A stretch of DNA of 63,634 nucleotides, filler included, from an uncultured Methanosarcinales archaeon (GCA_964472345.1; 4 parts of 4 records of this genome joined end to end with filler, not necessarily neighbours in it), one strand, 5' to 3'; positions 3,104 through 55,335 are shown, counted from the first letter of the whole stretch. Numbers and translations are program-made. Notes: a model not told the origin generated them from the letters alone.

Positions 3104-3345
3104 CCTGGGAGATCTCTTGGCATCCGAAAGCAGCAAAATTTGTTGAGAAGCTTCCACGATTGACGGCCGAACGTATTCTTTCTAAGTTTGATGAAGTCAT
3201 TCTTGACCCATTCAAGTATCTTGAGCATTTTGAGGGCGATTATTACAAGTTACGGATTGGAGACTATCGCGCGCTCATTGATATAAGCTTTGAAAATAAA
3301 ATCCTGAAAGTTCGCGTATTCGATAAGAGAGGAAGAATATACTAA
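3100..3345 (+). CDS. relE: RelE/ParE family toxin
   Basis: 81 aa; WEISWHPKAAKFVEKL, YKLRIGDYRALI, KRGRIY. Confidence 0.9.
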   Translation: MTWEISWHPKAAKFVEKLPRLTAERILSKFDEVILDPFKYLEHFEGDYYKLRIGDYRALIDISFENKILKVRVFDKRGRIY

Positions 3346-3410
3346 CCTATCCTTCTCACAATTCCTTTCGTTGCGTCAACCTCTACCAAGTCCCTGTCTT
3401 TAAACTCTTT
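3342..3410 (-). pseudogene. 3' remnant of a PEP-utilising mobile (swivel) domain gene
   Basis: Translates KEFKDRDLVEVDATKGIVRRIG*, matching the C-termini of the three full paralogs (e.g. [20 protein letters not shown]); no start codon. Confidence 0.8.
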
Positions 3411-4466
3411 TTAAAACAACGGGCCTTTGAGTGCTTTTTGTATGTTTACCGGCGGCACCTTCGCCAGACCATCCTCCTGCGCGTCCACAAGAGCAAATAT
3501 CTCATCAAGGTGCGTAAAGTTTTCTGTCACAATCCTTCGCGAAACAGAAGAAATGCTCTTCTTCACCCGCTCATGGAGAAACGGCACGCGAGCCTCTCCG
3601 AACGCCCGCCCCCAGAGAACCGGTCCGAAATGAGGGATAATGGCGGAGAGCGACACGTCCGGAATCGCCGACGCTTTCTCGTATGCTTCCCAGCCGCCCA
3701 TTATTGCACCTAAGTACGCCCTGCGATCCCTGAAATTGATCAACGCAGAAAGCAGGTAATGGGCAAGGAGGTTGCTGACGTCAAATGCCGGGTCACCGTA
3801 GTGCGCCAGCTCATAGTCGATGAGCATGAACGTGGCATTAAAGATGAGGATGTTCTTGGGGTTGGTGTCGCCGTGGACGAGCGCGATCCTTCGGCTGAGC
3901 GTTTCACTGATAATGTGATCAAGTGCGGAGCGGACAGTCGCTCGCGTTTCTGCGCCCCTCATCGCCTCGGAGTACAAGCCGATTTTGAGCTTCTCGAATG
4001 CTGTCCGATCACTGAATTCACGCTCAAGGGCCTTCCGGACGAATCGACTCCGGCCGTCGAGACGATCGACCTGGGCCCCTTCGGGCTTCCCCTCGTCGTC
4101 GACGTTCCCCCGCAAGAGATCGGCGGTGAGCAGGCGCGCCCCTTCCGGCGCAGAGCGGAACACCAGGATGCTGTTCTCTTTATCGTAAAGAATGGGGACG
4201 GGGACGCTCCTCGAGCCGCTCAGGAGGCGAAATCTCCTTATGGCCTTGTACTCAGTTTGTGTCCGGCGGGGATTGAGGGAGATGTGCGGAAAACGAGGCA
4301 GCTTCCCAAGCGATTGGCGCACGATAAGCGTCTGCGACGCGGTCTTCACGCGGAAGATGCGGTTGACGTTGCTCGGAATCGAGCTGATGCGGATCCCTTC
4401 TTCATGGGTGATAAGCGCATTGGAGCGAAGGTACGCCCCGATGCCGTCTTCAGTGAGCGCTTTCAT
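3411..4466 (-). CDS. APH/choline/methylthioribose kinase-like phosphotransferase
   Basis: NVNRIFRV, LVHGDTNPKNIL, LIDYELAHYGDPAFD. Confidence 0.8.
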   Translation of the reverse strand: MKALTEDGIGAYLRSNALITHEEGIRISSIPSNVNRIFRVKTASQTLIVRQSLGKLPRFPHISLNPRRTQTEYKAIRRFRLLSGSRSVPVPILYDKENSILVFRSAPEGARLLTADLLRGNVDDEGKPEGAQVDRLDGRSRFVRKALEREFSDRTAFEKLKIGLYSEAMRGAETRATVRSALDHIISETLSRRIALVHGDTNPKNILIFNATFMLIDYELAHYGDPAFDVSNLLAHYLLSALINFRDRRAYLGAIMGGWEAYEKASAIPDVSLSAIIPHFGPVLWGRAFGEARVPFLHERVKKSISSVSRRIVTENFTHLDEIFALVDAQEDGLAKVPPVNIQKALKGPLF

Positions 4467-4534
4467 TCTTTTTGCGCACGGAGCGCCTGCGTCGTTTTTA
4501 CCATTCCAACGCGCACCTTGGGCGCATCAGCAGC
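4463..4534 (-). pseudogene. degenerate 3' remnant of ribH
   Basis: Translates AADAPKVRVGMVKTTQALRAQKE* versus the ribH end AADATKACVELVKRLRER*; its TGA overlaps the kinase ATG. Confidence 0.6.
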
Positions 4535-4544
4535 CATCGCGTCG

Positions 4545-5024
4545 TCACACGACCTTCACCTTGAAGTACTTTTTGTAATAGCCGCGGTCGCGCGTCGCGA
4601 GGTACTCTGCGTGGTTCTGCGCATGAGCGCCAATCAGGAAATCGGTGACGATGTGGTTTCTCCAGGAAAGTTTTGAGCCGCACCCCCTGCAGGAGAATGC
4701 CTGCTCCTTGCTGCAGCGCGGGCAGCGTATGCCTCGATCATTCCTGAATGCTGCCCACGCTTCTGCGGCAAGCGCAAGATCGCGCTCATCGAAGTTTATC
4801 ACGCGAACACCCATGTCACGGAGAAACTCGTTCAATTTTGAAACCGCGATGCTGGTTTCGTGCTTGCGCAAAAAGAAAACAAGCAGCTCAGTGTACACCA
4901 CAGGGGAGATGATAAGTGCTCCCTCAGCCGCGTGCTTTTCGAGGAGTTCTCCGCTCAGACCGCCAAACCGCGGATCGTTGCCAAGCACATCGAGAAGGAT
5001 GTTGGTGTCAACGGCCGTTATCAT
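4545..5024 (-). CDS. vapC: PIN-domain (VapC) toxin with zinc-ribbon insertion
   Basis: VDTNILLD, VYTELL, DFLIGAHA, LATRD; CPRC and CRGC insert. Confidence 0.88.
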   Translation of the reverse strand: MITAVDTNILLDVLGNDPRFGGLSGELLEKHAAEGALIISPVVYTELLVFFLRKHETSIAVSKLNEFLRDMGVRVINFDERDLALAAEAWAAFRNDRGIRCPRCSKEQAFSCRGCGSKLSWRNHIVTDFLIGAHAQNHAEYLATRDRGYYKKYFKVKVV

Positions 5025-5227
5025 CGGAGCTCTGCCATGACCTCATCCGTCTTAAGCCTTCCAAGATAGCCCACCCATTTATCAAGGGGCAGTTTCTTCT
5101 TTTTCTTGTGCAGAACGACCGTGCTGTTGTTAACCCCGAACTCCACCTCATCACCGGGCCCGACCCCCAGCGCTTCACGTATCTGTTTGGGGATGGTGAC
5201 CTGGCTTTTTTGGGTGAGCGTTGGCAT
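5021..5227 (-). CDS. AbrB/MazE family antitoxin
   Basis: LTQKSQVTIPKQIREALGVGPGDEVEF; overlaps the vapC start. Confidence 0.88.
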   Translation of the reverse strand: MPTLTQKSQVTIPKQIREALGVGPGDEVEFGVNNSTVVLHKKKKKLPLDKWVGYLGRLKTDEVMAELR

Positions 5228-5274: not shown

Positions 5275-5688
5275 TCAGCGCTCCCGCAGCCGCTTCACGA
5301 GCTCCACGCACGCCTTCGTCGCATCTGCCGCTCTCCCGATCCGCGCAATTGCCTGCTCCATCGTCATCCGCGGGCCGTTCACCCCAAGCACGACAGGCTT
5401 CCCAAATTCCAGCGACAGCTCCGTGAGCGCTTTTGCGACCGCGTGGGCGATTACCTCGTCGTGGGCTGTTTCGCCCTGCACAACCGCCCCGAGCGTCACG
5501 ACGCCGTCGATGTCCTTGCGCTGCAGCAGCCTCTTCGCCGCAAGCGGAATGTCGAAGCTCCCAGGCACTTTCACAACATCAGCAAGAGCACCGGCATCCT
5601 TTGCTGCCAAAAGCGCCACGTCCAGCATCTTGCCCGTCACCTTTTCCCAATAGTATTCCGATACGACGATGCCGAGTTTCATTTTCAT
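5275..5688 (-). CDS. ribH: 6,7-dimethyl-8-ribityllumazine synthase
   Basis: VPGSFDIPLA, GVVTLGAVVQGETAHD, KPVVLGV. Confidence 0.95.
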   Translation of the reverse strand: MKMKLGIVVSEYYWEKVTGKMLDVALLAAKDAGALADVVKVPGSFDIPLAAKRLLQRKDIDGVVTLGAVVQGETAHDEVIAHAVAKALTELSLEFGKPVVLGVNGPRMTMEQAIARIGRAADATKACVELVKRLRER

Positions 5689-6104
5689 CACTTGAGTATT
5701 AATCTTATAAATTCTTCTGCGTTTAGTGTCGTAAAGTCAGTCCGCATCTCTTTTAAGAAATCCCTGTTTTCTGTGACTAAGCAGTCTGCTTTAATCCACT
5801 CAGCAAATGCGGCAATGACTCCGTCCCCTTCTTTTGCGCCTCTTTTATGGTATTTCTCAATCAGCTCGTGGGGGATAAGCTCATCGGCAATTATTTCAAG
5901 GTTTAATGATTTTATGGTATGGGCTGCAAAAGCCGCAAAATCCTTGCCTTCAAGGCTCTTTAACCGTTCAAAAACCTCGTAAAAAACCATTCGGGGAATA
6001 AAACAGTTAAACCGCATTCCAGCAAATTTTAAAATTTCCGCAAAAACTTCCTTGTCGCTTCGCAGCGCAAAGATAAAGATATTGGAATCAAGAACGGCGC
6101 GCAT
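5688..6104 (-). CDS. PIN-domain toxin
   Basis: VLDSNIFI, VFYEV, GDGVIAA, LVTENRDF. Confidence 0.85.
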   Translation of the reverse strand: MRAVLDSNIFIFALRSDKEVFAEILKFAGMRFNCFIPRMVFYEVFERLKSLEGKDFAAFAAHTIKSLNLEIIADELIPHELIEKYHKRGAKEGDGVIAAFAEWIKADCLVTENRDFLKEMRTDFTTLNAEEFIRLILK

Positions 6105-6363
6105 GGTACACTCTTTCTCTGGCCTTTTTAAGTTCCCTTAACTCTTTTTCAGGCTCAAACAGCTCTTTTCGTTTCTGCATTCGCTGGCGTGCCATCTTTC
6201 TCAACAGGTCGATTTTTGCCGCGTGGGGGAGGAGGTCATGTCGCGACAAAAGCCGAACAATCGATGAACGGACAAACTCCCCTGTAGAACGGTACTCTTT
6301 TTGTGCAAGCCGCGCCATTCTCTTTTCAAGCTCTTTTGGCACGCTCACATTAACCAGCTTCAT
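6088..6363 (-). CDS. ribbon-helix-helix antitoxin
   Basis: MKLVNVSVPKELEKRM...YRSTGEFVRSSI; overlaps the PIN gene. Confidence 0.75.
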   Translation of the reverse strand: MKLVNVSVPKELEKRMARLAQKEYRSTGEFVRSSIVRLLSRHDLLPHAAKIDLLRKMARQRMQKRKELFEPEKELRELKKARERVYHARRS

Positions 6364-6514
6364 GCGACTCCCCCAGATTATGCCTGATAGCTTCCCTGAT
6401 AGCTTCATTCCTATTCCCATAGATGCCTGCTTTAATCAGAAGATCGAGGTCGTTGAGGAGCTCTTCGGGAATTTTCACTTTGATGGTTGACAGGCGGTTT
6501 TTTAATGTAACCAT
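6350..6514 (-). CDS. small CopG/RHH regulator (54 aa, not in the ORF track)
   Basis: Manual translation: MVTLKNRLSTIKVKIPEELLNDLDLLIKAGIYGNRNEAIREAIRHNLGESHEAG*. Confidence 0.8.
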   Translation of the reverse strand: MVTLKNRLSTIKVKIPEELLNDLDLLIKAGIYGNRNEAIREAIRHNLGESHEAG

Positions 6515-6582
6515 AGATATACCAGAAGTATACCTTCTATTTAAGTGTTATGGTGATAATTCCGAAACGACAATGCTGAGTT

Positions 6583-7068
6583 TCATTCCAGTTGTTCCAT
6601 CATATGAAGCACGTACCTCCAAAGTGCCCCACCAAGCCAGCCCCTAGTGCGGAGTATTGCTTGCATATCGATGAGAAGATCCTCTTTTTTAATGTTCCCA
6701 TTTTTGTACAATAAGAAAAGAAGAGAGAAGCTCGGTCTTGTCCGCAACCGTAATCGCTCATAAGCGACACGTGCCGCATGGACATCATCGGTAAGAGCAG
6801 GCAGCTTCTCTTCCTTTGCGAGCATAAAGACCTCAGTCTCCGCCAATGCAAGGCCGAGAGCGATGCAAGTCCTTGGCTTCCTTACACGAAACTTTCTTTT
6901 TAAGAGCTCTTTCGCTTTCATTCCTAAGAGATCATCATAGTGAGCGAACGATTCAAGCTCTTTTAAAACGGAATCGGTAATAATGAACGTATGCTCATCA
7001 AATACCATGCGGGAATGCCGCGAGCACGCAAGAGAAAGCAGTGCGCCCGTGTCAGCCACCAATCTCAT
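6583..7068 (-). CDS. PIN-domain protein
   Basis: LVADTGALL, VLKELE, ETEV, ALTDD. Confidence 0.75.
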   Translation of the reverse strand: MRLVADTGALLSLACSRHSRMVFDEHTFIITDSVLKELESFAHYDDLLGMKAKELLKRKFRVRKPRTCIALGLALAETEVFMLAKEEKLPALTDDVHAARVAYERLRLRTRPSFSLLFLLYKNGNIKKEDLLIDMQAILRTRGWLGGALWRYVLHMMEQLE

Positions 7069-7342
7069 GCATGATCTCCTCTACCCAGCGCTTGCCAAAG
7101 GTGAGATCGTTGATCTCTTCTTCACTGAGAACATTCTTCAGCTTCGTTTCAGAAATCTCTCCTTTGAGCCAGAGCTCAGCAGCCAGCTTCTTTAGTTTTT
7201 CTTTCTCTTCTTTCTCTTTCAGCAGTTTCTGGACTGCTTCTTTGATGAGTTCGGTGCGGGTCTTATACTCCCGCTCAGCCTCTTCATCGATTTTCCGGAT
7301 GAGTTCCGGTTCGATCCTCATCGAAAATTGTGTCGCATGCAT
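7052..7342 (-). CDS. RHH/CopG antitoxin
   Basis: QFSMRIEPELIRKIDEEAEREYKTRTELIKEAV; palindrome aacccattgtatatacattgggtt immediately upstream. Confidence 0.8.
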   Translation of the reverse strand: MHATQFSMRIEPELIRKIDEEAEREYKTRTELIKEAVQKLLKEKEEKEKLKKLAAELWLKGEISETKLKNVLSEEEINDLTFGKRWVEEIMHEIGG

Positions 7343-7495: not shown

Positions 7496-7966
7496 TCATC
7501 CTAGCGCTCCCGCATCCCCTCCCCCTTGCCTCCTTCCTTTCCCCGCAAACGCCGCCAGCTCTTCTTTCCCCTTCAGCAGCGCCAGCGCGTTCAGCGCATG
7601 CTTCGCTGCCCTGTCGCAGGCAATTTCCCGCAGCCTCTTCTCATCGCCCGCTTCCCGCTCATGGACAAACACTTTCAGGATGTGGGTGTTCGTCATCAGC
7701 TCCGCAGTGATCAGCCCGGTATTCGCCTCATGCGCGCACGTTTCATCAATCTCCTCTTTCCCGACCCACCCAAATGCGAGCACGATCTCACACTGGTGCT
7801 CCTCGATCAGCTTCTTCGCTGCCACCGGCAGGTCTTTCATCCCCGGCACCGTGGAGCGCTCGATCTCAAGCTTATCATCACCGATGTTCGCGTTTCTGAG
7901 CGTTTCAATCGCGGCTGCAGCCATATCAACCCGCGCAAACGTCGTATCCGCTACACCAATTCGCAC
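7496..7966 (-). CDS. ribC: archaeal-type riboflavin synthase
   Basis: IGVADTTFARVDM, TVPGMKDLPVAAKKL, VFVHE, GKGRRQG. Confidence 0.95.
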   Translation of the reverse strand: MRIGVADTTFARVDMAAAAIETLRNANIGDDKLEIERSTVPGMKDLPVAAKKLIEEHQCEIVLAFGWVGKEEIDETCAHEANTGLITAELMTNTHILKVFVHEREAGDEKRLREIACDRAAKHALNALALLKGKEELAAFAGKGRRQGGGDAGALG

Positions 7967-8310
7967 ACAAACTCATCCCCGTCCTTCAGGCCAAGGCTCT
8001 CCCGCAGATCAACCGGCGCGACGATCTCAAGAATGTCCTTCCCGTGCCTCGTCTTCTGCGGAATGGTGATTGCACCATCATGTTCACCGTTGATCCGCAC
8101 GAGATAGCAGTCCACCGGAACCAGATCCGCTTCCTTTGGTGTAATTGTCAGCTTCTGGAACCCTTCAAAAACCGGCAGCTGCGCAACCTTCACATTGAGC
8201 GTCCCGGGATGGCACGTGAACCCGAGCGTCTCCTCGAAATACGGCAGGTACTTCTCCACGTACCACTTTCCCTCTCCGGCGCCCGAGACGACGGTGCCGC
8301 GTATTTCCAT
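7951..8310 (-). CDS. ribK: CTP-dependent riboflavin kinase
   Basis: GTVVSGAGEG, PGTLNV, LEIVAPVDLRESLGLKDGD. Confidence 0.92.
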   Translation of the reverse strand: MEIRGTVVSGAGEGKWYVEKYLPYFEETLGFTCHPGTLNVKVAQLPVFEGFQKLTITPKEADLVPVDCYLVRINGEHDGAITIPQKTRHGKDILEIVAPVDLRESLGLKDGDEFVCELV

Positions 8311-16431: not shown

Positions 16432-16531
16432 NNNNNNNNNNNNNNNNNNNNNNNNNNNNNNNNNNNNNNNNNNNNTTAATTAATTAANNNNNNNNNNNNN
16501 NNNNNNNNNNNNNNNNNNNNNNNNNNNNNNN
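16432..16531. other. assembly linker (contig join)
   Basis: N-run, TTAATTAATTAA, N-run. Confidence 0.97.
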
Positions 16532-19783: not shown

Positions 19784-19805
19784 GTTTGTTCGTTCTGGAA
19801 TATAG

Positions 19806-19843
19806 AGAAATGCGTTGATTGGTGTAAAAAATAACGCATTTCT
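19806..19843. repeat. 11-bp perfect inverted repeat (terminator or operator)
   Basis: agaaatgcgtt ... aacgcatttct just after the 19783 stop. Confidence 0.5.
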
Positions 19844-22080: not shown

Positions 22081-22857
22081 TTACCGACTCAAAGCGGCGG
22101 CCTCAAGCGGTTGGGAAGACGCAGTACGGGCCGGAGGCGTGGGCCGTATGGGCTCGAGTTGGTGTACTTCGATTATTGGAGCGTTCTCCTTTGTCGTTTC
22201 CGCAAACGCTTGTACCATCTTCTCCATTGCATCATCGGGGTCGATTTCCCTCTGAAGGATGTCTGCAAGTGATGTAACCTGTTGCTGCGGCTCACCGCAG
22301 AGATCAACAATATCATTTTGAGGAGCTTTATCCACATAAACTGCCGCACCGTGCAACGTGGTACAAGACCCCAACGGAAATGACCTGAACTCAACGCCAA
22401 TCGCCGCGACTTTCTTCCGCTGCCCGTTGGAAGAGAAAAAGACCCCCGGATGCCCAAGGTGCTCTGACGTGGAGAAACTCCCATCAATAAGATTATCAGA
22501 GACATAATCCTGCAGGAATCGCACTATCGTCTCCTGCATCAGTTTGAGATATCCGACTTTTGCACGGATGGTATCAGGGATGAGCGTGAGGTAATAAGCC
22601 ATCAGCTGATGTTCATCATGCACTGTTGCTTGCCCTGAACGATCAATATCAAACGTGGGAATCCGCCTCCCGTCACGATAAAGAGCATGGTCGCGCTTTT
22701 CCGCAGGTGTATCCATTCCGTACGTAACGACGAGCGGGTGGCGCATCACCAGAAGAGCATGTTCACCAGTATCAGCGACGGCCCTCGCAGCCCGATCCTG
22801 CTCAAGAAGCGCAGAGGAATAGCCGTACGGCCGCCCGGTGTAAAGCCGCACCCTCAT
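22081..22857 (-). CDS. lipB: divergent octanoyltransferase LipB-like protein
   Basis: HPLVVTYG, DRSGQATVH...QLMAY, KKVAAIGV, TLHGAAV, DLCG. Confidence 0.7.
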   Translation of the reverse strand: MRVRLYTGRPYGYSSALLEQDRAARAVADTGEHALLVMRHPLVVTYGMDTPAEKRDHALYRDGRRIPTFDIDRSGQATVHDEHQLMAYYLTLIPDTIRAKVGYLKLMQETIVRFLQDYVSDNLIDGSFSTSEHLGHPGVFFSSNGQRKKVAAIGVEFRSFPLGSCTTLHGAAVYVDKAPQNDIVDLCGEPQQQVTSLADILQREIDPDDAMEKMVQAFAETTKENAPIIEVHQLEPIRPTPPARTASSQPLEAAALSR

Positions 22858-24197
22858 TTCAGGCCCTTCGGCTCCTGCAGCCCCGCAATCACGTCGTTCA
22901 GGAACCGTGCTGCCTCTGCCCCGTCCACGACGCGGTGGTCAAAGCCGACGACGAGCGGGAGCATCCTGCGGATGACAACCTTGCCGTCAATCGCAACGGC
23001 CTTGTCCTGCATCTTTCCGACGCCGAGGATCGCGGCTTCCGGCGCGTTGATGATGGGCGTGAACATGCTGCCGCCGAGGATGCCGATGTTGGTGATCGTG
23101 AAGCTGCCGCCCTTCAGCTCCGCAAGGTCAATCTTCCGGCTCTTGGCGCGCTCCGCAAGCCCGGCGATCTCCTTCGCAAGCGCGTACAGGTCCTTCTTCT
23201 CGGCTCCCTTGACGACGGGGACGATCAGGCCTTCGCCCGTGTCCACTGCGATGCCGATGTTGTAGTACTTCTTGACGATGATGTCGCCGTTCTCCCTATC
23301 GAGCGTTGCGTTGAAGCGCGGGTATTTCTGCAGCGCGGCGACCAGCGCCTTGACGATATACGGCAGGTACGTCAGGTGCACATCCTGCTTCTGCGCCTTT
23401 GCCTTCTCCCGCTCGCGCAGCGCAGCAAGCTCCGTCACGTCAGCCTCATCCATATGCCACACTGTCGGGATGCCCCAGGCAGCTTCCATGTGCTCCGCGA
23501 TCGTCTTGCGCATGCCTTTCAGCGGCACGTGCTCCACATAGCCCCAGAAGTCGTATTTCTTCACCACCTTCGGCCTGCCTGCTTCCTGCGCGGCGGTTTC
23601 CTGCGCCCGTGGCGGGGTGGATGGCGCAGTTGCCGGCACGGCTGCTGCCGCCGCTTTTCGTGCGGCTGCGCCTGACGGCGCTTTCGCTCCCGCCTTGGCC
23701 GCCTTCATGACGTCCTCTTCCGTGATGTGGCCGTAGGCGCCCGTTCCCGCGACCGCAGCAAGCGCAACGCCGAAGTCGGCTGCGAGCTTCCTCACCGCGG
23801 GGGCCGCGAGCGCGCCGCCTCCGCCGGCCGCGCGCTTCAGCGTGTCTTCGCCCGGAAGGAACCCCACGACGCCTCCCGCCTCCTCGCCTTTCGCCGGCTG
23901 CGGGGGCTTTGCTGCCTGCTTCTGCGTCACGCTTTGTGCTGCCTCTCCCTTCACCTCAAACGTCACCATCGTCTCCCCCACCCTGATGGTGCCGCCTGCG
24001 ACGGCGTGCAGCCTGAGAATCTTTCCTGCCTTGGGAGAAGGGATCTCGACGACCGCCTTGTCGGTTTCTACCTCGCCAAGGACCTGGTCAACCGTGACCG
24101 TGTCGCCTTCCTTCACCTTCCAGCCGACGATGGTGCCTTCATGGATGCCTTCGCCGACGTCAGGGAACCTGAATTCGAATGTTGCCAACACCACCAC
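22854..24197 (-). CDS. pdhC: 2-oxoacid dehydrogenase E2 dihydrolipoamide acyltransferase
   Basis: PDVGEGIHEG, VETDKA lipoyl-Lys, PAVRKLA, FDHRVVDGA; exact start uncertain. Confidence 0.95.
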   Translation of the reverse strand: MVVLATFEFRFPDVGEGIHEGTIVGWKVKEGDTVTVDQVLGEVETDKAVVEIPSPKAGKILRLHAVAGGTIRVGETMVTFEVKGEAAQSVTQKQAAKPPQPAKGEEAGGVVGFLPGEDTLKRAAGGGGALAAPAVRKLAADFGVALAAVAGTGAYGHITEEDVMKAAKAGAKAPSGAAARKAAAAAVPATAPSTPPRAQETAAQEAGRPKVVKKYDFWGYVEHVPLKGMRKTIAEHMEAAWGIPTVWHMDEADVTELAALREREKAKAQKQDVHLTYLPYIVKALVAALQKYPRFNATLDRENGDIIVKKYYNIGIAVDTGEGLIVPVVKGAEKKDLYALAKEIAGLAERAKSRKIDLAELKGGSFTITNIGILGGSMFTPIINAPEAAILGVGKMQDKAVAIDGKVVIRRMLPLVVGFDHRVVDGAEAARFLNDVIAGLQEPKGLK

Positions 24198-24251: not shown

Positions 24252-24665
24252 TCACCGCGAAAGACCAAAAAGCCGGAGAAGCTCATGGGTAGTGTAAACA
24301 ATTACGGAAGGCTGATTGCGCAATGCCTTTTCGCTCGTCCAGAGAGGACACTGAAGAAAGAGCGCCAAGGCGAAATAGGTGGTATCTTTCTTGTCGGGGC
24401 AGATCGCTTCGGCCTGCTCCCTGAATTTCACAAAAGCGCTTTCTGGTACGATAGTCATCCGCTGCCGTACGATGGCGAGGAAGGTTCCCACCTCTTCATC
24501 TTTCAGGTAAGACTTCGCGAGGATAATCCCCCTGTTGCGCTCAATCTCTTCTATGAGCAGCTGCGGCGCGAAGAGCTCAATTTCCTCCCTGAAGAAAAGG
24601 TCCACGGGCTTTCCAGGCCTGATGAGCATTGCGATGATAACATTCGCATCAACGACGAGCCGCAT
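24252..24665 (-). CDS. PIN-domain toxin
   Basis: LVVDANVII, PDKKDTTYFALAL, LWTSEKAL. Confidence 0.88.
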   Translation of the reverse strand: MRLVVDANVIIAMLIRPGKPVDLFFREEIELFAPQLLIEEIERNRGIILAKSYLKDEEVGTFLAIVRQRMTIVPESAFVKFREQAEAICPDKKDTTYFALALFLQCPLWTSEKALRNQPSVIVYTTHELLRLFGLSR

Positions 24666-24893
24666 CTACTCCATCTCTCGGAACCGTTTTGCAATCCCTT
24701 CGCTGATCCGGCGGCTGATTTCCCGCGCATCCTTTTCCGTGAGCGCGCTCTTCTGCGCGAGCCGCTTGACGAGCGCAATCTGCCGCATCCGCTCCTCGAA
24801 AGCGTGCCGTGCGACGGCCGACCAGTTGACCTCGTCAAGCTTTTCCATATTTTGCTTCAGCTCGTCAGGGACCGAAACCGACACGGTTGCCAT
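24666..24893 (-). CDS. RHH antitoxin
   Basis: MATVSVSVPDELKQNMEKLDEVNWSAVAR. Confidence 0.82.
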   Translation of the reverse strand: MATVSVSVPDELKQNMEKLDEVNWSAVARHAFEERMRQIALVKRLAQKSALTEKDAREISRRISEGIAKRFREME

Positions 24894-25093
24894 GAAAACC
24901 ACCTGAGTTGTTATTTTTATTATAAAAAACATTTGTAGTATTTAAGCGTTGCGGTCGGTGAGGAGTTGTGTGCGTGACGGCAGGCCACAGCCCAAAGGCA
25001 ATGAGGACGTCATGATATCAAAGGCGTGAGGGTGCGGAATCCTGATTGAGGCTGGGGCTGCTCCAGGGAAGACATTCCCAGATTGTTCCCTAT

Positions 25094-25777
25094 TCAGTGA
25101 GGGAACCTATCACCTGCTCGGCCTGTTCGCCCTTTCCCCACCGCCCCGTGCAGCTGCTTCAGGTACTTCTCCTCAACAAAGAGGTACTTCTTCAGCTCGC
25201 GCAGCATCTTCTCCACGTCAAACAGCACCCATCCGTCGCCGTGCCGGAACTGCCAGAGCGTCTCGTCGATGAGGTACTGCCAGTCGAAATTCTTCGTATT
25301 CTTCACAATAGTGAGGATATCCTCAAAGTCCCTGTCCCGTTCCGTTACCGCTTTCAGGACCACAATATGCTCGGTACGGAGAACATTGACGGTGAGAGTA
25401 TGCTTTCCCTTGAACTCGTGCACCGCGTATTTGTCCTCTTTCATCTGCGGGCTCAGCTTGGTCTGGAAGATGCACTTCACGAACAGGTCAAACCTGCTGT
25501 CATCGCGCCTGTACATCAGCGGCCGGTGCCTGTCGAGCAGCTTCTTGGGGATGTACAGCCTGAACGGGCTCGCCTCCGCGAAGCCGAGCGCCTCGATGGC
25601 ACGGATGAACTCCTTCCGCTGCGGCTCGTCCTCAAAGAGCAGATCGATGTCCTTCGTTTCATCCTTGTAGCCGTAGAACAGCATCGCGGTGCCTCCAAAC
25701 GCGTAACAGGTGAGATCCCGCGTGAGGGCGTTCGCAACAATCCGGAATACGTCCCGCTGGTCGTTGTGCGTTATCAT
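25094..25777 (-). CDS. AbiEii-like (DUF6036-type) nucleotidyltransferase toxin
   Basis: FGGTAMLFYGYKDETKDIDL, LKAVTERDRDFED. Confidence 0.8.
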   Translation of the reverse strand: MITHNDQRDVFRIVANALTRDLTCYAFGGTAMLFYGYKDETKDIDLLFEDEPQRKEFIRAIEALGFAEASPFRLYIPKKLLDRHRPLMYRRDDSRFDLFVKCIFQTKLSPQMKEDKYAVHEFKGKHTLTVNVLRTEHIVVLKAVTERDRDFEDILTIVKNTKNFDWQYLIDETLWQFRHGDGWVLFDVEKMLRELKKYLFVEEKYLKQLHGAVGKGRTGRAGDRFPH

Positions 25778-26382
25778 GTGATGGCCTTTAGGTCGTGCTC
25801 ATTGAACGGGAGATAGACGGACCAGTGCCGTGCAATTGCGGGGAAATTGTCCTTGCGCAGCTGGGTGAGAGGCACCCTCCCCCGGACTCTTTCCGCCTTC
25901 CGGTACCTTTCGGGCATCGTTCGCACCCTGAAGAACATCCGTGCGACGTCGTAGAGCGCTCCGACTTTCCTCCAGCAGCCTTTCTCCTGCGCGTACGCAT
26001 AGAGCCGCGGCCAGTCCCTGACGTGGGAAAAGAGCCTGAGGCTTGCGAGGATCACGCGGAACTTCTGCGTCTCAACCGCGTCCACGATCGCCTCTTCCGG
26101 GCCATAGCGCCCGTGGACCTGATGGTCATACCAGGGCAGGATCTTCATCGGCGAATGCCTGTTGATGATGTCGAACATCCCCGGCACCCGCGGCAGCTGC
26201 CTGCGCATCGTGACATTGTAGATCCGCTTCCTCCTGCCGCCGCCGTCCACCGTGACGTGCCCTTCTTTCCGGAGCCTGCACAGGAGGTTGAGCGCGGACT
26301 GCCGCGTGATGCTGAGCAGCTGTGCAGCCGTTTCGACGGTCTGGAGGCCTTCGAGCTTGCGGAGGGTTTCGTAGGGGTGCAT
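25774..26382 (-). CDS. HTH-containing AbiEi-like antitoxin/regulator
   Basis: N-terminal wHTH (AAQLLSITRQSALNLLCRLRKEG), PEEAIVD; overlaps the NTase gene. Confidence 0.65.
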   Translation of the reverse strand: MHPYETLRKLEGLQTVETAAQLLSITRQSALNLLCRLRKEGHVTVDGGGRRKRIYNVTMRRQLPRVPGMFDIINRHSPMKILPWYDHQVHGRYGPEEAIVDAVETQKFRVILASLRLFSHVRDWPRLYAYAQEKGCWRKVGALYDVARMFFRVRTMPERYRKAERVRGRVPLTQLRKDNFPAIARHWSVYLPFNEHDLKAIT

Positions 26383-26508
26383 GATATTATTTTAGAATAG
26401 GTGATATATAAAGATTTCTATTTTTGTGTTATCTTATACGGAAAACGACCAAAGCAAGAAGCACCAATCAAGCGATTGCACGGACGAAGGAAGCGATACG
26501 CGCGCACC

Positions 26509-27102
26509 CTAAACGCCAATGCCCAAGGCGGCAAGTTCTTTTTTCAATTGAGCAGTTCTCTCAAAAAGGATTACCTGCATCCCTAGTTCCTTTGGGATGG
26601 TTAAGTTTTCTTCTTTATCATCAACAAATACACATTCCGATGGCTTCTTGTTTAATTTTGTGAGAACAATCTTGAATAATTCCTTATCTTTTTTCCATAA
26701 ATGCATCTCATTTGAAAAGTACATCTCCTCAAATAAGTCCTTCAAGCGTTTATCTTTTCTTATAGTTGTGGTTACTGCATCAAAATTATCCGAGAGTACG
26801 ATGAGCAGATGATCATCTTTCAATTTTTTAATCGACCCCAGCAATTCTTCGTTCAATTCGTACCAAGCAGAAAAGATAGTCTCGAATTCGCGGTAAGGAA
26901 CCCCTAAGTCCTCGAGGGATCTTCTCCAAAAATCTTGAGTCGATTCATTGCCCAAGAGATATCCCTTTTCATTTGCATATAATCTTTTTTGTATACGCTT
27001 CTTATTTATGTTAAATCGAGTGCTAAGCCTTTTTGCGAGTGCAGGAAAGCATCGTTCGGTTGTTAAAACGCCCGCAAAATCAAAGATTAATACATTTATC
27101 AT
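26509..27102 (-). CDS. HAD-superfamily phosphatase
   Basis: IFDFAGVL, VLSD, WKKD, CVFVDDKEEN; AT-rich. Confidence 0.85.
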   Translation of the reverse strand: MINVLIFDFAGVLTTERCFPALAKRLSTRFNINKKRIQKRLYANEKGYLLGNESTQDFWRRSLEDLGVPYREFETIFSAWYELNEELLGSIKKLKDDHLLIVLSDNFDAVTTTIRKDKRLKDLFEEMYFSNEMHLWKKDKELFKIVLTKLNKKPSECVFVDDKEENLTIPKELGMQVILFERTAQLKKELAALGIGV

Positions 27103-27256: not shown

Positions 27257-27319
27257 CTAATACCCCATCACTTCCTCAATCGCCTTCCCGATCCGCTTCA
27301 CGCCCGGCAAATAATCGTT
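27257..27319 (-). pseudogene. duplicated 3' end of pdhB
   Basis: NDYLPGVKRIGKAIEEVMGY* versus pdhB DEYLPSVKRIGKAIEEVMGY*; near-identical DNA to 29502-29564. Confidence 0.92.
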
Positions 27320-27365: not shown

Positions 27366-27544
27366 GGCGTTATTGAAAAGTTCCCGTTCGCTGCGCTCGA
27401 TTCAATGGTCCTTCGGACTGGCATCGAGCTGGAGCCTGGCAGGTGTCCCACTTACGCCGGCACGGAGAACGTGCAGCGTCCTCCTGGGTGTCGTGCCGAG
27501 CCCGACACGCTCACTGGCCCATTGGCGAACTTTTCAATAACGCC
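27366..27544. mobile_element. MITE-like element (179 bp)
   Basis: 18-bp perfect TIR ggcgttattgaaaagttc; perfect 8-bp flanking duplication tgagaagc (27358-27365 and 27545-27552). Confidence 0.85.
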
Positions 27545-28342: not shown

Positions 28343-28765
28343 TTAGCTCTTTCCTTTTTTGCATACGTTCCTTACAGCTCTTATAAACTTCAGAGCATCT
28401 CGCTCAAGCTCTTCCGTCAGCGCCGCAAAAACAACCCCATCATCTATTTTCCCGTACTGGTGGGCAATAATATTTCTCATGCCCTTTGCGTTCCTGAGCT
28501 TTGCGGTGAGGGCATCATCGATAATCTTATTCTCCAAAAGAACGGCAAACGCGTCGCTGTCGTCCTGTGGGATGCGCAGCTTCTTGCCTTTGATGACAAA
28601 AAATGCGAGATCGGTGGCCGCTTCAACAATCCTCTCTATGTACCGTTCGCACGCTGCTTTTTTTTCTTTGTTTGCGGTGTACTCTTCAACACTGTCCGGA
28701 ACGATTGATTGGAGCTCGTCAAGGAGTTCGTTAATTTCATCTATCTTATCGTCTATCCGTGTCAT
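28343..28765 (-). CDS. hepT: HEPN (DUF86) ribonuclease toxin
   Basis: GMRNIIAHQYGKID (Rx4HxY motif). Confidence 0.9.
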   Translation of the reverse strand: MTRIDDKIDEINELLDELQSIVPDSVEEYTANKEKKAACERYIERIVEAATDLAFFVIKGKKLRIPQDDSDAFAVLLENKIIDDALTAKLRNAKGMRNIIAHQYGKIDDGVVFAALTEELERDALKFIRAVRNVCKKGKS

Positions 28766-29376
28766 GCTGCTGCCCCAAACACGCGTTCCATTCTCATAAA
28801 ATAATCCTTATCTTTTATGTATTGGGTGGTAAACTGCACATTATCGAAGCCCGGTGATTTGTAGAGTACCCTATGGTTGCTGGCGATCTCCCTTTTTATT
28901 TTCTGCGGGAGGATATTGAACACCTGCACATCCAGCCTGTCAGGGAGCTGACCAAGCATCCGTATCCGGAATCGCGTCGCCTCACGGAGCGAGAGGCTTG
29001 CCGTAAAAACGACGCAGATATCGATATCAGATCTCAGTGTAAAAGTATGGTCTGCAAAAGAGCCAAAAAGAAGAACTGCACGAATGGTGTCCCTTAGCTT
29101 GTCGTTGAGGATAGTCCTAACTGCTTTTTCCATCAGCTCTTTATTCTCATGACCATGGGTAAGCGCAAATTCATTGTGATGGAATGCTGCATCTTTGATG
29201 AACGCCAGCTTAGGCCGGATGTCCCTGCTCAGGCGGTTTCGCTCTGATTGCGTGAGCAGCATGCCTTTGAGCTGCTTTGCGATAATCTCAAGTTCTTTTT
29301 TGCCGAATATTTTCCGCGTGCCTTGATGCGATACAAGGAATGGAAGCAGACCCCGGGCGATAATCTTATTTGACAT
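28762..29376 (-). CDS. mntA: minimal nucleotidyltransferase antitoxin with N-terminal extension
   Basis: LLFGSFA...RSDIDICV, LDVQVFNILP; palindrome aatataacc..ggttatatt upstream. Confidence 0.85.
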   Translation of the reverse strand: MSNKIIARGLLPFLVSHQGTRKIFGKKELEIIAKQLKGMLLTQSERNRLSRDIRPKLAFIKDAAFHHNEFALTHGHENKELMEKAVRTILNDKLRDTIRAVLLFGSFADHTFTLRSDIDICVVFTASLSLREATRFRIRMLGQLPDRLDVQVFNILPQKIKREIASNHRVLYKSPGFDNVQFTTQYIKDKDYFMRMERVFGAAA

Positions 29377-29501: not shown

Positions 29502-30479
29502 TCAGTACCCCATCACTTCCTCAATCGCCTTCCCAATCCGCTTCACGCTCGGCAAATATTCGTCCTCGAGCTTGGCGAGCGGGAAGATCGTGTCAAAGCC
29601 CGTCACACGCTTCACCGGCGCTTTCAGGCTGAGCAGCGCCTTGTCAGCGATCTGCGCAGCGATCTCCGCGCCGACGCCGCAGGTCAATGGCGCCTCGTGC
29701 ACGATCACGCACCTTCCCGTCTTCTTCACCGAAGCGATGATGGTCTCCACGTCCAGTGGATACGGGCAGCGCAGGTCGATGATCTCCATGCTCACCTTGC
29801 TGCCGTATTCCTGAAACGCCTGCACGGTTGTCAGCATCATGCTTCCCCAGCTTATGATGGTTATGTCAGAGCCTTCGTTGACGACGTTCGCCTTGCCCAG
29901 CGGAATGGCATATTCTTTGCCCGGGATCTCCTCTTTCATCGCGCGGTACAGGCGCTTGGGCTCCATGAAGATGACGGGGTCGGGATCGCGGATGGCGCTC
30001 AGCAGCAGGCCGTATGCCTCGGCCGGCGACGACGGCATGGCGACCTTCAGCCCCGGCGTGTGCGCGTAGAGCGCTTCCATGCTCTCCGAGTGGTGCTCCA
30101 GCGCCTTGATGCCGCCGCCGTAGGGCATGCGCAGCACCATGGGACAGCTGTAGACGCCGCGCGAGCGCGTGCGGATGCGGGAGGCGTGCGAAATCAGCTG
30201 GTCAAAGGCGCCGTACGCAAAGCCGCTGAACTGGATCTCCGCAACGGGCCTGAGGCCGGCGATGGCCATGCCCACGCTCCCCCCGACGATGCCCAGCTCA
30301 GCGAGCGGCGTATCCAGGACGCGCTCCGGGCCGAACGCATCAAGCAGGCCCTCCGTGACGCGGAAGACGCCCCCGTCAACGCCGACGTCCTCGCCAAGGA
30401 CAATCACGCTCCTGTCGCGCTGCATCTCATAGCGCAGCGCCTGGTTGATGGCCTGCACCATGGTGAGCTGCTCTGCCAT
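29502..30479 (-). CDS. pdhB: 2-oxoacid (pyruvate) dehydrogenase E1 beta
   Basis: LGEDVGVDGGVFRVT, DTPLAELGI, EIQF, EHHSES. Confidence 0.96.
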   Translation of the reverse strand: MAEQLTMVQAINQALRYEMQRDRSVIVLGEDVGVDGGVFRVTEGLLDAFGPERVLDTPLAELGIVGGSVGMAIAGLRPVAEIQFSGFAYGAFDQLISHASRIRTRSRGVYSCPMVLRMPYGGGIKALEHHSESMEALYAHTPGLKVAMPSSPAEAYGLLLSAIRDPDPVIFMEPKRLYRAMKEEIPGKEYAIPLGKANVVNEGSDITIISWGSMMLTTVQAFQEYGSKVSMEIIDLRCPYPLDVETIIASVKKTGRCVIVHEAPLTCGVGAEIAAQIADKALLSLKAPVKRVTGFDTIFPLAKLEDEYLPSVKRIGKAIEEVMGY

Positions 30480-48297: not shown

Positions 48298-48340
48298 TGA
48301 GGCACAGGCTCCCGCTGGTTTAAAAACATTTTGCCTGAAG

Positions 48341-48472
48341 GGCTCTGTAGAAAAGTGGCCGTAGACGTCAGCTGGAGCAGCACCGGAGCCGCATGGCGGA
48401 GGCCTGCTCGACGGCTGACGCGCCGGGGATGCCCCATCCGGGGTGGCGCGTAGGCCACTTTTCTACGAAGCC
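48341..48472. mobile_element. MITE-like element (132 bp)
   Basis: TIR ggctctgtagaaaagtggcc / ggccacttttctacgaagcc (18/20); perfect 8-bp duplication gcctgaag. Confidence 0.85.
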
Positions 48473-48783: not shown

Positions 48784-48883
48784 NNNNNNNNNNNNNNNNN
48801 NNNNNNNNNNNNNNNNNNNNNNNNNNNTTAATTAATTAANNNNNNNNNNNNNNNNNNNNNNNNNNNNNNNNNNNNNNNNNNNN
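48784..48883. other. assembly linker (contig join)
   Basis: N-run, TTAATTAATTAA, N-run. Confidence 0.97.
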
Positions 48884-50877: not shown

Positions 50878-50951
50878 AGTGAATCACCGGTAACCGTCAA
50901 GGGCTTGAAAACAGGGAAGTTTTCATTGTCCTTGACTCTGAGTTTCATTTT

Positions 50952-52844: not shown

Positions 52845-53326
52845 GCGCGGATAATCTCCAGCACCTCACGGAGCGTTTTGATGGTGTAATCCGGAACCTC
52901 AAACGCGTCTTTCGGTTTTAAATCTTTGTACTTGCCGTGCAGCAGCCGTATGGTGGTGAAGCCGAGCATCTTGCCGGCGCGGATTTCAGAGTCGAGCCGG
53001 TCGCCGATGACCACAATGTCTTTTGGATCGGTGATGTGATAGTTGTCCATCAGCCGCTTGAACAGTGCCTGCTTCTCCTCAGGGCTCGCACAGACGCAGA
53101 TCTCCTCAAAATAGGGGCGGATGCCGAGGACGTCAACCTTTTGTTGCTGGATGCCCGGCTCGCCTTTGCTGATGAGCACCTTCGGAACCTTGATGGCGTT
53201 GAGTACCTGCAGCGCATCAGGAAACAGCGTGATGTTCGGCAGGTTCCGGTATGTTTCGTCCAGCTGCCCCCAGCGGTCGTACAGGGTGTCGTCAAGGTCG
53301 AAGATGACGAGCCGGACAGTGGTCAT
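52841..53326 (-). CDS. HAD-superfamily hydrolase
   Basis: IFDLDDTLYD, VIGDRLDSEI..G..LG. Confidence 0.88.
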   Translation of the reverse strand: MTTVRLVIFDLDDTLYDRWGQLDETYRNLPNITLFPDALQVLNAIKVPKVLISKGEPGIQQQKVDVLGIRPYFEEICVCASPEEKQALFKRLMDNYHITDPKDIVVIGDRLDSEIRAGKMLGFTTIRLLHGKYKDLKPKDAFEVPDYTIKTLREVLEIIRA

Positions 53327-54267
53327 AGTCCCACCAGAATCTCCGCCAGCTTCTCTGAATCGTGCCGGATCAGCTCAGGCTCCCGCACCAGCTCCTCTGC
53401 GATGATGCGCTTCGCGAGCTTTTCCGCAGCGGCATCGGGCTGCACCGGATACGCATTCTCCTGTGCATACTTCCGCAGCAATGCCGCGTCCGCCTGCTTC
53501 CCGTTGCAGATGATTGTGTCAAGCATCAGCAGGCCGCTGTACCGCAGGATTTCCCTGGCATGATCAGAAACCGCAAAGCCGTTCGTCTCGCCCCATTTTG
53601 TCATCAGGTTGCAGACATACACCTTTTTTGCATGGCTCTTCTGGATGGCTTCCGGCACGCCCTTGACAAGCAGGTTGGGGATGATTGAGGTGTACAGGTC
53701 TCCCGGACCAATGACCAGAATGTCAGCCTGCTCGATGGCACGCCTCGTCGCTTCATAGACTGCAGCTTCCGGCTCGAGAAAGACACGCGTGATGCGCAGG
53801 CTGCCATCGTGCTTCGGCACGTCGATGTTCGTCTCGCCGCGGACGATCTGGCCATCTTCAAGCTCCGCGCAGAGGTGCGCATGGTCAACCGAGACGGGGA
53901 GCACCTTGCCTTTGATCTTCAGCACCTTGGACGCCTGCCGGATCGCCTCCACCTCGCTGCCGGTGATGCGCGTCAGCGCTGTCAGGAACAGGTTGCCGAA
54001 GCTGTGCCCCTTCAGCGAGCATTCCGCATCAAAGCGGTAGCTGAACAGCTCGCGCAGCACATTCCTTCCGTTCTCCTCCGCGAGCGCGACAAGGCACCGC
54101 CGGACATCACCAGGTGGAAGGATGCCGAACTCATCGCGCAGCATGCCCGTTGAGCCGCCGGAATCGAACATGCTGACGACCGCGGTGATGGCGACGTCAT
54201 GCTTCTTCAGGCCGCGCAGCACCGTGTAGCTGCCCGTCCCGCCGCCGATGACGACGAATTTTTTCAT
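53323..54267 (-). CDS. yvcK: YvcK/GlmR (CofD-like) family protein
   Basis: [50 protein letters not shown]. Confidence 0.92.
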
Positions 54268-55322
54268 GATAGTTTCCTCACGATGCCTTTATTGGCGTCA
54301 ACTTCAACAATATCGCCATCCTTCAGCACTTTCGTCGCTATCTTCGTCCCAATCACGCACGGCTTGCCGAGCTCGCGTGCAACGATGGCTGCGTGGCAGA
54401 GGATACCTCCCGCGTCAGTCACAATAGCGGCAGCTTTTTCCATGAGGGGAACAAACTCAGGACGCGTCATGCCGGAAACAAGGATATCACCTTTGATAAA
54501 CGTCTCTGCGTGCTCAGGATCAGAGATTACTCGGGCAATCCCCCGTGCTTTTCCCGGGTAAGCTGTCTGACCTTTCAGCTCGTTGCTTTCTAACGGGCGA
54601 GCGACTGCCTCCTCGATAGGGAGCACATCTTTACCTATAAAAAGGCTGTAATCCCCATCTTTGAAAACAAAGGCAGCGTCGTTGTACCTTTGTTCCAATA
54701 AGCTCTTGTTGGGTAAACGCCCATCTGCGAGGTAATCAATCATCTCTTCTTTGGTCATGCACAAAACATTCTCGCTTGTAGAGGCCGTTTTCTTGCCAAT
54801 GGCTCGAGCAAGTCCAGCCATAAAATCTTCTGTTCTTTTAAAGACCGATTCTGCGTACACGCGAGCTTCTTGGAGCGCCCCCAGATGCTTCTCAAGGAGC
54901 TCTTTATCAAGGTAGTCGACAACATATTTGCAGGTGATGTGGGGTATGTAGTAGTCGTCAACGTGCTGCCAGAATTTTGTATAAATATCAAGACTGATAT
55001 CCGCAGTTTCATATCTTTTTATAAACGCAAGAATCTTGTCGGCTTCTTTCTTAAAAGATTTACACAAATCTCTTATTTTTTCGTCAGGGCTTTTGCGTAC
55101 AACCGATGCGATATGCCTTCCAAATGCCTCTTTCTCCTTCAATGGGAGAAATGCAGAGCTTTTCGCTTCGTGGACGATGAAGACTGCATGCTTCACAAAT
55201 CGGGCCCCTTCTACCCTAAGCGTTTTTGTATATTGCTCGCCGAAATGAGAACAGGTGAGAAAACTCCAATTTCCGGCCCAGATGGTTACCCATTCTGCCG
55301 ATTCAAGTTCGTTGATGTTCAT
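54264..55322 (-). CDS. PEP-utilising mobile (phospho-His swivel) domain protein with unknown N-terminus
   Basis: [36 protein letters not shown]. Confidence 0.85.
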
Positions 55323-55335
55323 CTCACCGTAACCC

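Follow-up and report, generated by a model that had tools for sequence, protein, structure and literature searches.

The stretch of DNA analysed here (the window, 63,634 bases) consists of four contigs of G000, an assembly of 1,264,057 bases in 120 contigs from an archaeon with a small genome; the contigs are joined by N runs and TTAATTAATTAA spacers and are not one molecule. On one of them the intact gene for the E1 beta subunit of pyruvate dehydrogenase (pdhB) is followed by a toxin-antitoxin pair (MNT nucleotidyltransferase and HepT RNase), two small open reading frames (ORFs) and a MITE (a miniature transposable element with inverted repeats), and then, on the strand of pdhB, by a second, stranded copy of the pdhB 3' end (Table 1). 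Stranded gene ends of this kind (scars) recur across the genome. We report that they are the footprints of accessory cassettes, mainly toxin-antitoxin modules, inserted at the termini of housekeeping genes: at each footprint the anchor gene is kept whole, and a copy of its terminus, 28-180 nt long over all footprints together, lies beyond the cargo.

Results

The pdhB locus

The two copies of the pdhB end form a 58-nt direct repeat with 55/58 identical positions and a spacing of 2245 bp, which was recovered by two independent methods and occurs in two copies only in the genome. The stranded copy ends in ..DYLPGVKRIGKAIEEVMGY and pdhB itself in ..EYLPSVKRIGKAIEEVMGY, with 18 of 20 residues and the stop shared. 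The scar had been proposed, at 27257-27319, in an earlier reading of the window (hereafter the original prediction), and it is confirmed: its score of 90 was reached by none of 1149 control gene ends, whose last 30 residues scored at most 40 on the same gap. It marks the boundary between a proximal block (MNT/HepT, the two small ORFs and the MITE) and an older one (a HAD hydrolase, two ORFs and a VapB/PIN_2 pair), and does not lie at the far edge of all inserted DNA, which separates E1 beta from the gene for the E2 subunit by 5.3 kb in the window. Before E2 and between the older cargo genes no further pdhB scar was found; scores there (15-16) were at or under the control median. One of the small ORFs (27881-28186) has a relative in G007 at 62% identity.

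Comparison with related genomes, which the original prediction had recommended, showed the anchors next to their operon partners. In G003, a member of the same family, the genes for E1 alpha, E1 beta, E2 and lipoate ligase are contiguous, and the older block is absent between E1 beta and E2. The genes ribC, ribH, ribD and ribBA are contiguous in G005, and ribC and ribH are adjacent in G017 as well. In a set of 80 metagenome loci with an E1 beta gene, E2 directly followed E1 beta in 44, and an insert of 0.25-3.6 kb was present in 20; none of the 80 was a same-species copy with the pdhB 3' end, the 95% hit L100 stopping inside the gene.

Footprints across the genome

A nucleotide self-comparison of the whole assembly, with direct and inverted repeats counted at the same thresholds, yielded 66 direct and no inverted repeat pairs within 10 kb. 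We examined 42 short pairs (28-250 nt, at least 80% identity). Multi-copy MITEs accounted for about 9 of these 42 and tandem paralogues or internal protein repeats for about 8; one was an exact 55-nt duplicate across an N run (C12), a scaffold artefact, and three were unclear. In 15 pairs, all contiguous, the upstream copy coincides exactly with a long gene's 3' end and the second copy lies 0.06-2.2 kb downstream on the same strand, and one further pair (the H+-pyrophosphatase gene on C29) has the same layout with the scar directly after an N run. Three pairs (C4, C22, C6) are the 5' mirror image, in which the promoter and the first 10-23 codons are stranded upstream of the cargo; one (C9) is an internal gene fragment, and two (C62, C96) flank HEPN/MNT or small genes with the anchor unassigned. 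The stranded 3'-end copies (the 15 contiguous ones and the one beside the N gap) measure 28-103 nt and always lie downstream on the strand of their anchor; at 13 of the 15 contiguous loci the repeat exceeds 30 nt. Identity reaches 98.6-100% in very recent pairs, with values of 99% and 98.6% for the recent 5' cases.

We also ran, at the protein level, the gene-end search with controls that the original prediction had proposed, comparing the last 30 residues of 1105 genes with the 5 kb downstream on the same strand (score cut-off 50). The cut-off was reached by 29 of the 1105 genes. Among the controls, 5 of 3252 comparisons with unlinked downstream regions reached it, or an expected 1.7 per 1105, as did 0 of 1105 on the opposite strand and 13 on the upstream side. 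When hits extending into full paralogues were removed, 15 stranded fragments were left, including those on C18 and C11, which had been missed at the nucleotide level; the stranded H+-pyrophosphatase tail on C29 is additional to these. Anchors include pdhB, enolase, SRP54, an OGG glycosylase, Ogt, an M24 peptidase, an RFC-like ATPase, an NAD(P)HX dehydratase and a glycosyltransferase. The predicted recurrence on many different anchors thus holds genome-wide and far over controls.

The footprint trait seems to vary between lineages. The relative G004, assembled in four contigs, has 14 unique short direct pairs in 415 kb, of which five were examined, their cargo having no Pfam match; the one-contig genome G024 has three unique weak direct pairs and one inverted pair in 400 kb, near background. 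At one locus of G004 (L120, G004:C1 134177-134701) the duplicated 45 nt take in both the end of a gene and the start of the one that follows, and the inserted ORF of 132 aa seems to take its start codon from the duplication.

Strain variants of one gene end, joined by the assembler into a single contig or scaffold, could imitate such footprints, and related populations at 90-95% identity do coexist in the samples. The exact 55-nt duplicate on C12 flanks an N run (G000:C12 1856-1910 and 2011-2065), and the scar on C29 (G000:C29 7463-7472) starts after an N run and differs from its anchor almost only synonymously; both are likely scaffold artefacts. As a general explanation, however, misassembly is very improbable. 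Fifteen loci are contiguous without N, a graph assembler would need junction-carrying reads to join cargo to a gene fragment, and similar pairs occur in G004. Moreover, the window sequence occurs in four runs, all groundwater metagenomes, and in three of them (X1, X2, X3) independently assembled contigs run from the pdhB stop into the MNT gene. The X3 contig also covers 26781-27382 without a difference, that is, the HAD gene, the scar and 44 nt to the MITE edge. Contigs of all four runs end at the edges of that MITE (27364 and 27544), and the join across it is correct, since the same 8 bp stand on both of its sides. The structure at pdhB is no assembly artefact. No contig joint skipping the pdhB cargo is listed among the run contigs, which says nothing on the absence of an empty-site form.

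Cargo

A Pfam scan of 137 genes in 20 loci and of the window ORFs found toxin-antitoxin-type domains in 9 of the 15 cargoes at the contiguous 3' loci (MNT with HepT or HEPN, AbiEii, HicA/HicB, a RelE-like nuclease, MazE-like, UPF0175) and AAA_14-DUF4143 ATPases in two, one of them frameshifted; four had no match. The GC content of the cargo is below that of the flanks in 17 of 21 loci, and apart from MITE pieces the cargoes have no further copies in the genome, so that the accessory nature ascribed to the cargo by the original prediction is borne out. G000 carries a load of 24 MNT-type and 26 PIN matches in 1.26 Mb; comparing the match lists with the loci, a footprint is still visible for about a fifth of the MNT modules and for fewer PIN modules. 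Behind the scar there is a further toxin-antitoxin module at five loci: pdhB, ribH, SRP54, enolase and a C12 gene. This layout agrees with serial insertion in which the latest cargo stands beside the anchor, as had been predicted, the order of the stacked events being our reading of it.

Genes for AAA_14-DUF4143 ATPases lie at G000:C43 7957-9354, C50 1345-2842 and C1 33253-34503. Two genes of this family are inserted behind enolase and a glycosyltransferase and are each followed by the stranded anchor end, like the toxin-antitoxin cargo; a third copy stands beside the C1 locus, outside the repeats. On C43 the ATPase frame continues into the stranded enolase end, and gene fusion at the junction was seen at C43 and C8.

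We rejected a link between the scars and the abundant MITEs of this genome, which have 18-nt terminal inverted repeats and an 8-bp target duplication. The MITE within the pdhB cargo has its own set of both and is a separate insertion, and MITE pieces stand at cargo edges in three loci only. The cargo itself does not qualify as a DNA transposon or MITE, as its ends are unrelated between loci and its duplications vary from 28 to 180 nt, although no terminal-inverted-repeat search was run on the cargo ends. A diversity-generating retroelement was likewise rejected: the pdhB mismatches (A/T, A/G, T/C) are not confined to adenines, and housekeeping enzymes serve as anchors. The genes scanned in the window and the fetched loci included no reverse-transcriptase domain, no genome-wide search having been made. 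Short interspersed repeats abound, 197 regions of the assembly being covered three or more times by self-hits. Their largest families number 45, 30 and 21 copies, with lengths of 100-250 nt, the 21-copy family being a MITE, and many contigs terminate in these repeats. In the window they lie at 27366-27544, 32-88, 17804-17982, 19801-19894, 36379-36503 and 48337-48472.

The riboflavin operon and other candidates in the window

The original prediction had started from three operons, with ribH, pdhB and glmS as anchors, and the contig boundaries place these on three separate contigs, as it had stated. In the riboflavin operon the gene for lumazine synthase (ribH) is followed by a MazE/AbrB-type antitoxin and a PIN toxin, and then by a piece, proposed as a scar at 4463-4534, in which 8 of 13 residues match the ribH end (AADAPKVRVGMVK vs AADATKACVELVK). 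On its 78-nt gap its score is equalled by 2 of 1149 control gene ends, and the matching positions (AAD..K...V.MVK) are those conserved in the ribH ends of four relatives; over 5 kb the match is not significant, and at the nucleotide level it is weak. The proposed scar is plausible on these counts, and is probably real and old.

Further into the gap between ribH and ribD lies an APH-family kinase gene. A distant APH-family gene (25% identity) stands between ribH and ribD of G002 on the opposite strand (L032, G002:C62 1007-1942), and the kinase may have long occupied this gap or have entered it more than once. We considered whether it is an internally deleted member of a family ending in the phosphoenolpyruvate (PEP)-utilizers swivel domain, and rejected this, as none of the 13 paralogues resembles it. 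In frame behind the stop codon of the kinase, at 3342-3410, stands the tail of a gene of that family, which reads KEFKDRDLVEVDATKGIVRRIG*. The tail, part of the original prediction, is confirmed as a stranded gene end: its score of 71 is reached by 3 of 1149 controls, presumably other members of the 13-copy family. Because the kinase in front of it is unrelated to the family, the tail reads as the remnant of a displaced gene; its contig carries no intact parent. The 13 family proteins (335-480 aa) have variable N-termini without a Pfam match, and several are encoded in tandem.

The gaps between ribC and ribH (1.8 kb) and between ribH and ribD (2.4 kb) contain almost nothing except toxin-antitoxin genes and the kinase. 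A match to the ribK C-terminus inside the MazE gene (5147-5203 vs 7951-8310, score 47) was judged to be a shared AbrB-like fold motif and no scar; ribK is a CTP-dependent riboflavin kinase, whose C-terminus resembles the N-terminus of the MazE/AbrB-type antitoxin.

Two further candidates fared less well. The glmS scar proposed at 55319..55333 (-) amounts to a five-residue match (RVTVR* vs SVTVR*), as good as which were 137 of 1149 controls, and is chance-like. The proposed 5' copy of the AMP phosphorylase gene at 50924..50948 (-) is marginal: 5 of 7 residues match, but 21 of 1149 controls do equally well and no cargo separates the piece from the gene. The two ATGA overlaps of the original prediction, at 4463-4466 and where 54264-55322 starts, do exist.

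The archaeal nature of the host is evident from several features: an archaeal signal recognition particle (SRP) RNA; a fused primase, whose 501-aa frame at 37614-39119 (+) unites the small- and the large-subunit domain by profile scan; archaeal-type ribosomal protein and RNA polymerase genes among the window ORFs (Pfam scan); and, elsewhere in G000 (Pfam scan of the fetched loci), TFIIB, Nre and an intein-bearing RtcB. The intein in the RtcB ligase gene (L031, G000:C6 59-2986) has a LAGLIDADG domain. A class I aminoacyl-tRNA synthetase gene of the window (43369-45893) is interrupted by a scaffold gap.

Table 1. Contigs, genes and repeat copies in the window (positions counted from its first base).
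Feature	Position	Strand	Remarks
Contig C23	1-16431
Contig C24	16532-32645
Contig C25	32746-48783		100-N gap at 44058-44157
Contig C28	48884-63634
Joining spacers	16432-16531, 32646-32745, 48784-48883		TTAATTAATTAA within N runs
pdhB (E1 beta), intact anchor	29502..30479	-	Pfam Transket_pyr and Transketolase_C on ORF 29502-30524; start refined by gene model
Proximal repeat copy, functional pdhB 3' end	29506..29563	-	58 nt; 55/58 identical to 27261-27318
MNT nucleotidyltransferase and HepT RNase, putatively newest cargo	28343..29376 (MNT 28762-29376, HepT 28343-28765)	-	Pfam Polbeta/NTP_transf_2, HepT-like
Two small cargo ORFs	27591-27851, 27881-28186	+	no Pfam or NCBIfam match
MITE, 21-copy family	27366..27544	.	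18-nt terminal inverted repeats; 8-bp target duplication TGAGAAGC at 27358-27365 and 27545-27552
Stranded pdhB 3'-end copy (scar)	27261..27318	-	extends to 27257 counting the Tyr and stop codons
Older inserted block, scar to E2	24252..27102	-	HAD hydrolase 26509-27102; ORFs 25774-26382 and 25094-25777; VapB-like 24666-24932; PIN_2 24252-24665
E2 dihydrolipoamide acyltransferase, ancestral downstream neighbour of pdhB	22854..24197	-	Pfam; adjacency to E1 beta in relatives
Toxin-antitoxin-type genes inserted between ribC and ribH	5688..7321	-	PIN 5688-6104; RelB-like 6088-6363 (weak); RHH 6350-6514; ORF 6583-7008; RHH 7052-7321
ribH (lumazine synthase), anchor	5275..5688	-	Pfam DMRL_synthase
Cargo after ribH	4545..5227 (MazE/AbrB-type antitoxin 5021-5227, PIN toxin 4545-5024)	-	profile matches
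Probable old diverged ribH 3'-end copy	4463..4534	-	stop overlaps the next gene's ATG (ATGA)
APH-family kinase, older accessory gene of the ribH-ribD gap	3411..4466	-	Pfam APH; weak NCBIfam kinase matches
Stranded last 22 codons and stop of a PEP-utilizers (swivel-domain) gene	3342..3410	-	in frame behind the APH stop codon
ParE toxin (3100-3345) and upstream partner ORF (2903-3103), more ribH-ribD cargo	2903..3345	+	Pfam ParE_toxin
PEP-utilizers family members	54264-55322, 55336-56772, 60843-62159		ten more genes in G000
Archaeal SRP RNA	48027-48296	-	118 bits; ORFs listed there are spurious

Recombinases and shared motifs

The original prediction had recognised no integrase or intact transposase in the window, and this is borne out: the scanned window ORFs of at least 130 aa contained neither an integrase nor a transposase domain. 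We ran the search of the whole assembly for recombinases and DNA-uptake genes that it had suggested. The assembly contains one tyrosine recombinase (C36, a 277-aa frame, presumably matching the chromosomal XerA in size) and one IS200-type Y1 transposase (C75); rve, DDE_Tnp_1, the TnpB zinc ribbon and ComEC gave no match in the whole assembly. No recombinase family matched among the cargo genes scanned in the fetched loci, and no shared or attC-like motif exceeded shuffled controls in 20 repeats. Given the lack of a shared motif and of a cargo recombinase, and the small number of recombinases genome-wide, it is unlikely that one site-specific enzyme is behind all insertions. The term integron-like, which had been offered for the arrays, is not borne out as a mechanism: no integrase stands beside them, the sole tyrosine recombinase being on C36, away from the arrays; a shared or attC-like motif is lacking; and the repeats are all different coding gene ends.

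The cargo could nevertheless be the remnant of site-specific integration, with the repeats as attL and attR and the integrase lost or acting in trans. Direct repeats that rebuild the 3' end of a gene are the classic signature of such integrative elements (also in the part of PMC2853133 considered here), and the genome does hold one tyrosine recombinase. We nonetheless regard decayed integrative elements as quite improbable. The at least 20 different repeat sequences have no common core, no integrase was found in the cargo scanned, and the sole recombinase frame, presumably XerA-sized, lies on another contig. In addition, the cargoes are small (0.3-2.2 kb, one or two genes each), and 5' and internal fragments occur too.

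Divergence between the two copies

The two copies of the repeats were compared at the codon level in 15 pairs (C43, C56, C35, C62, C96, C22 and the cobW pair of C6 were left out). They differ at 36 synonymous vs 27 non-synonymous sites (pN/pS 0.24), with 14, 10 and 39 differences at codon positions 1, 2 and 3; the contiguous pairs on C12 have synonymous to non-synonymous ratios of 4:0 and 3:1. Past the nucleotide repeat several tails are diverged yet alike (for example ILRKRYA* vs VTRRKYG.., IRHEK* vs QRRKEK*), as expected of two alleles both evolving under selection. Since the copies differ mainly at synonymous sites, the data suggest that one of them came with the cargo from a related strain.

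The duplication could also have arisen in situ, if foreign DNA was ligated into a widely staggered break, or in between two sister chromosomes broken at different places, so that 28-180 nt of native sequence were copied on both sides of the insert and the outer copy then decayed. Published insertions of restriction-modification genes have the same geometry (PMC2853133, in the part considered here), and an in situ event accounts equally for 3', 5' and intergenic duplications, for repeats that vary in length without a shared motif, and for very recent pairs that are nearly or fully identical. Some older pairs moreover resemble neutral decay (C1, 2.5 synonymous to 8.5 non-synonymous; C50, 2.5 to 4.5). 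However, the pooled differences lean synonymous, with and without C29, and the C12 pairs add up to 7 synonymous and 1 non-synonymous; identity falls sharply in the less constrained tails, and not evenly along the scar; and selection alone would have to explain why repeats end at or within a few codons of the stop. We consider this origin possible but rather unlikely. The mostly synonymous differences fit the part of the original prediction by which incoming DNA supplies a homologous gene end; target duplication in situ has a lower but real probability.

Discussion

The presented data favor, with a probability of roughly 0.5, a homology-anchored route for the cassettes. According to this hypothesis, donor DNA from a related strain would already carry the cassette beside the same gene, and would integrate through the short homologous gene end on one side only, either as a small circle by a single crossover or as a linear piece by homology-facilitated illegitimate recombination. 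One gene-end copy would then be the donor allele and the other the native one, and we infer which of them is the newcomer. No element-encoded recombinase would be needed. Repeated events at one anchor would stack cassettes with the newest beside the anchor, and events that truncate the anchor or delete a neighbour would be removed by selection, which we propose as the reason why only duplications are seen.

Several results weigh against a homology-anchored route and call for caution. The synonymous signal is strongest on C29 (16:1), where the scar follows directly on an N gap and lies just past a highly conserved motif; C29 may be a strain-chimeric scaffold, and we counted it apart. Without it pN/pS is 0.39, which is not significantly different from the value of roughly 0.55 reckoned for a neutral scar and a constrained gene (hand calculations). 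Gene conversion between the copies could be the source of the synonymous bias, and the recent 5' cases, with their near-identical copies, are uninformative on the route. The bias is compatible with homology-facilitated illegitimate recombination, and indecisive. Moreover, a scar was present in none of 25 other metagenome E1 beta loci tested (17 with an insert before E2 and 8 with no E2 found downstream), and scars are therefore not the rule for such insertions. No donor sequence, same-species empty site or circular form was seen, all relatives found belonging to other genera, and the check by independent assemblies covers the pdhB locus only.

The phenomenon has more precedent than the original prediction had supposed. 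Furuta, Abe and Kobayashi (2010, PMC2853133) describe a published analogue, insertion with long target duplication. In the part of that paper considered here, bacterial restriction-modification units without mobility genes are flanked by unique repeats of more than 30 bp and of variable length, some of which overlap the 3' end of a neighbouring gene; same-species empty sites are shown, junction gene fusion is noted, no archaeal case passed the filter, and the mechanism is not established. In G000, too, a small addiction-type unit is flanked by a unique, target-derived repeat of variable length (at pdhB, 58 nt in two copies), inserts measure 0.06-2.2 kb and so stay under the 20 kb applied as a criterion there, no recombinase family was matched among the cargo genes scanned, and both overlap with gene 3' ends and fusion at junctions occur. 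As for empty sites, pdhB and E2 (G003) and ribH and ribD (G005) are adjacent in other genera, and no same-species genome or contig was found. The cases differ in that the published ones, in the part considered, are restriction-modification units in bacteria, whereas ours are mainly toxin-antitoxin modules in an archaeon, at no fewer than 15 loci in 1.26 Mb; in addition, the repeats here are anchored on gene termini, and their synonymous-biased divergence hints at a donor allele. Insertion of restriction-modification units with long target duplication was reportedly described by Nobusato et al. as early as 2000 (Gene 259:99), a paper that two toxin-antitoxin reviews carry in their reference lists only.

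Other known systems share single features with the footprints. Homology-facilitated illegitimate recombination is said to have been described by de Vries and Wackernagel in 2002 in naturally transformable bacteria, usually with deletion of recipient DNA. It likewise combines one homologous anchor with one illegitimate join and needs no element-encoded enzyme; duplication of the anchor end is reportedly a less usual outcome, and G000 has no ComEC match. Tycheposons are integrative elements comparable to islands with att repeats. Such elements and islands occupy tRNA or protein-gene 3' ends, as do integrated mobile genetic elements (iMGE) of Thaumarchaeota (PMC6563490, in the part considered here). 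In these, too, incoming DNA rebuilds the gene end, the old end remains partial beyond the cargo, and arrays form at one anchor, but they use a site-specific recombinase and a core site, whereas in G000 the sites are many and unrelated, the cargoes are tiny, and the cargo genes scanned included no integrase. Integrons, archaeal ones among them (bioRxiv 10.1101/2022.02.06.479319, in the part considered here), resemble the footprints in that small cassettes poor in promoters are lined up in arrays; these are often toxin-antitoxin modules, and the newest stands beside the entry point. In contrast to them, we found no intI, attI or attC, and each repeat is a different gene end. The pdif modules often carry toxin-antitoxin genes. 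On Acinetobacter plasmids these small modules move without a recombinase of their own (PMC13141974, in the part considered here), but they are bounded by Xer recognition sites, and the footprints have no shared site.

As far as the literature was searched, the type of footprint is thus already known, and the toxin-antitoxin cargo, the archaeal host and the density are new. A search that left subscription journals and supplements outside gave no paper that reports long target duplications around toxin-antitoxin modules, be it in archaea or in other organisms. In the part considered of a 2009 comparative survey of type II systems, the words 'flanked' and 'repeats' are absent and the movement of modules is not described. 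Long target duplication, so far a matter of bacterial restriction-modification genes, is hereby extended to archaea and to another class of addiction module. There is also a practical warning for annotation, since what is left of a neighbouring gene can appear as a short ORF or an 'ATGA-coupled' start beside such a cassette.

Toxin-antitoxin modules are among the most mobile prokaryotic genes, yet they have no mobility enzyme. With at least 15 footprints in which both junctions are readable, their route of entry becomes directly testable. We tentatively suggest that toxin-antitoxin and similar cassettes could spread between strains with a few dozen bases of the neighbouring gene's end as an address label, and that homologous recombination of the host would integrate them behind the same gene. 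If true, this would be a recombinase-free, homology-addressed kind of movement that builds stacks of cassettes behind core genes, and the question of how toxin-antitoxin modules travel with no mobility genes of their own would be answered.

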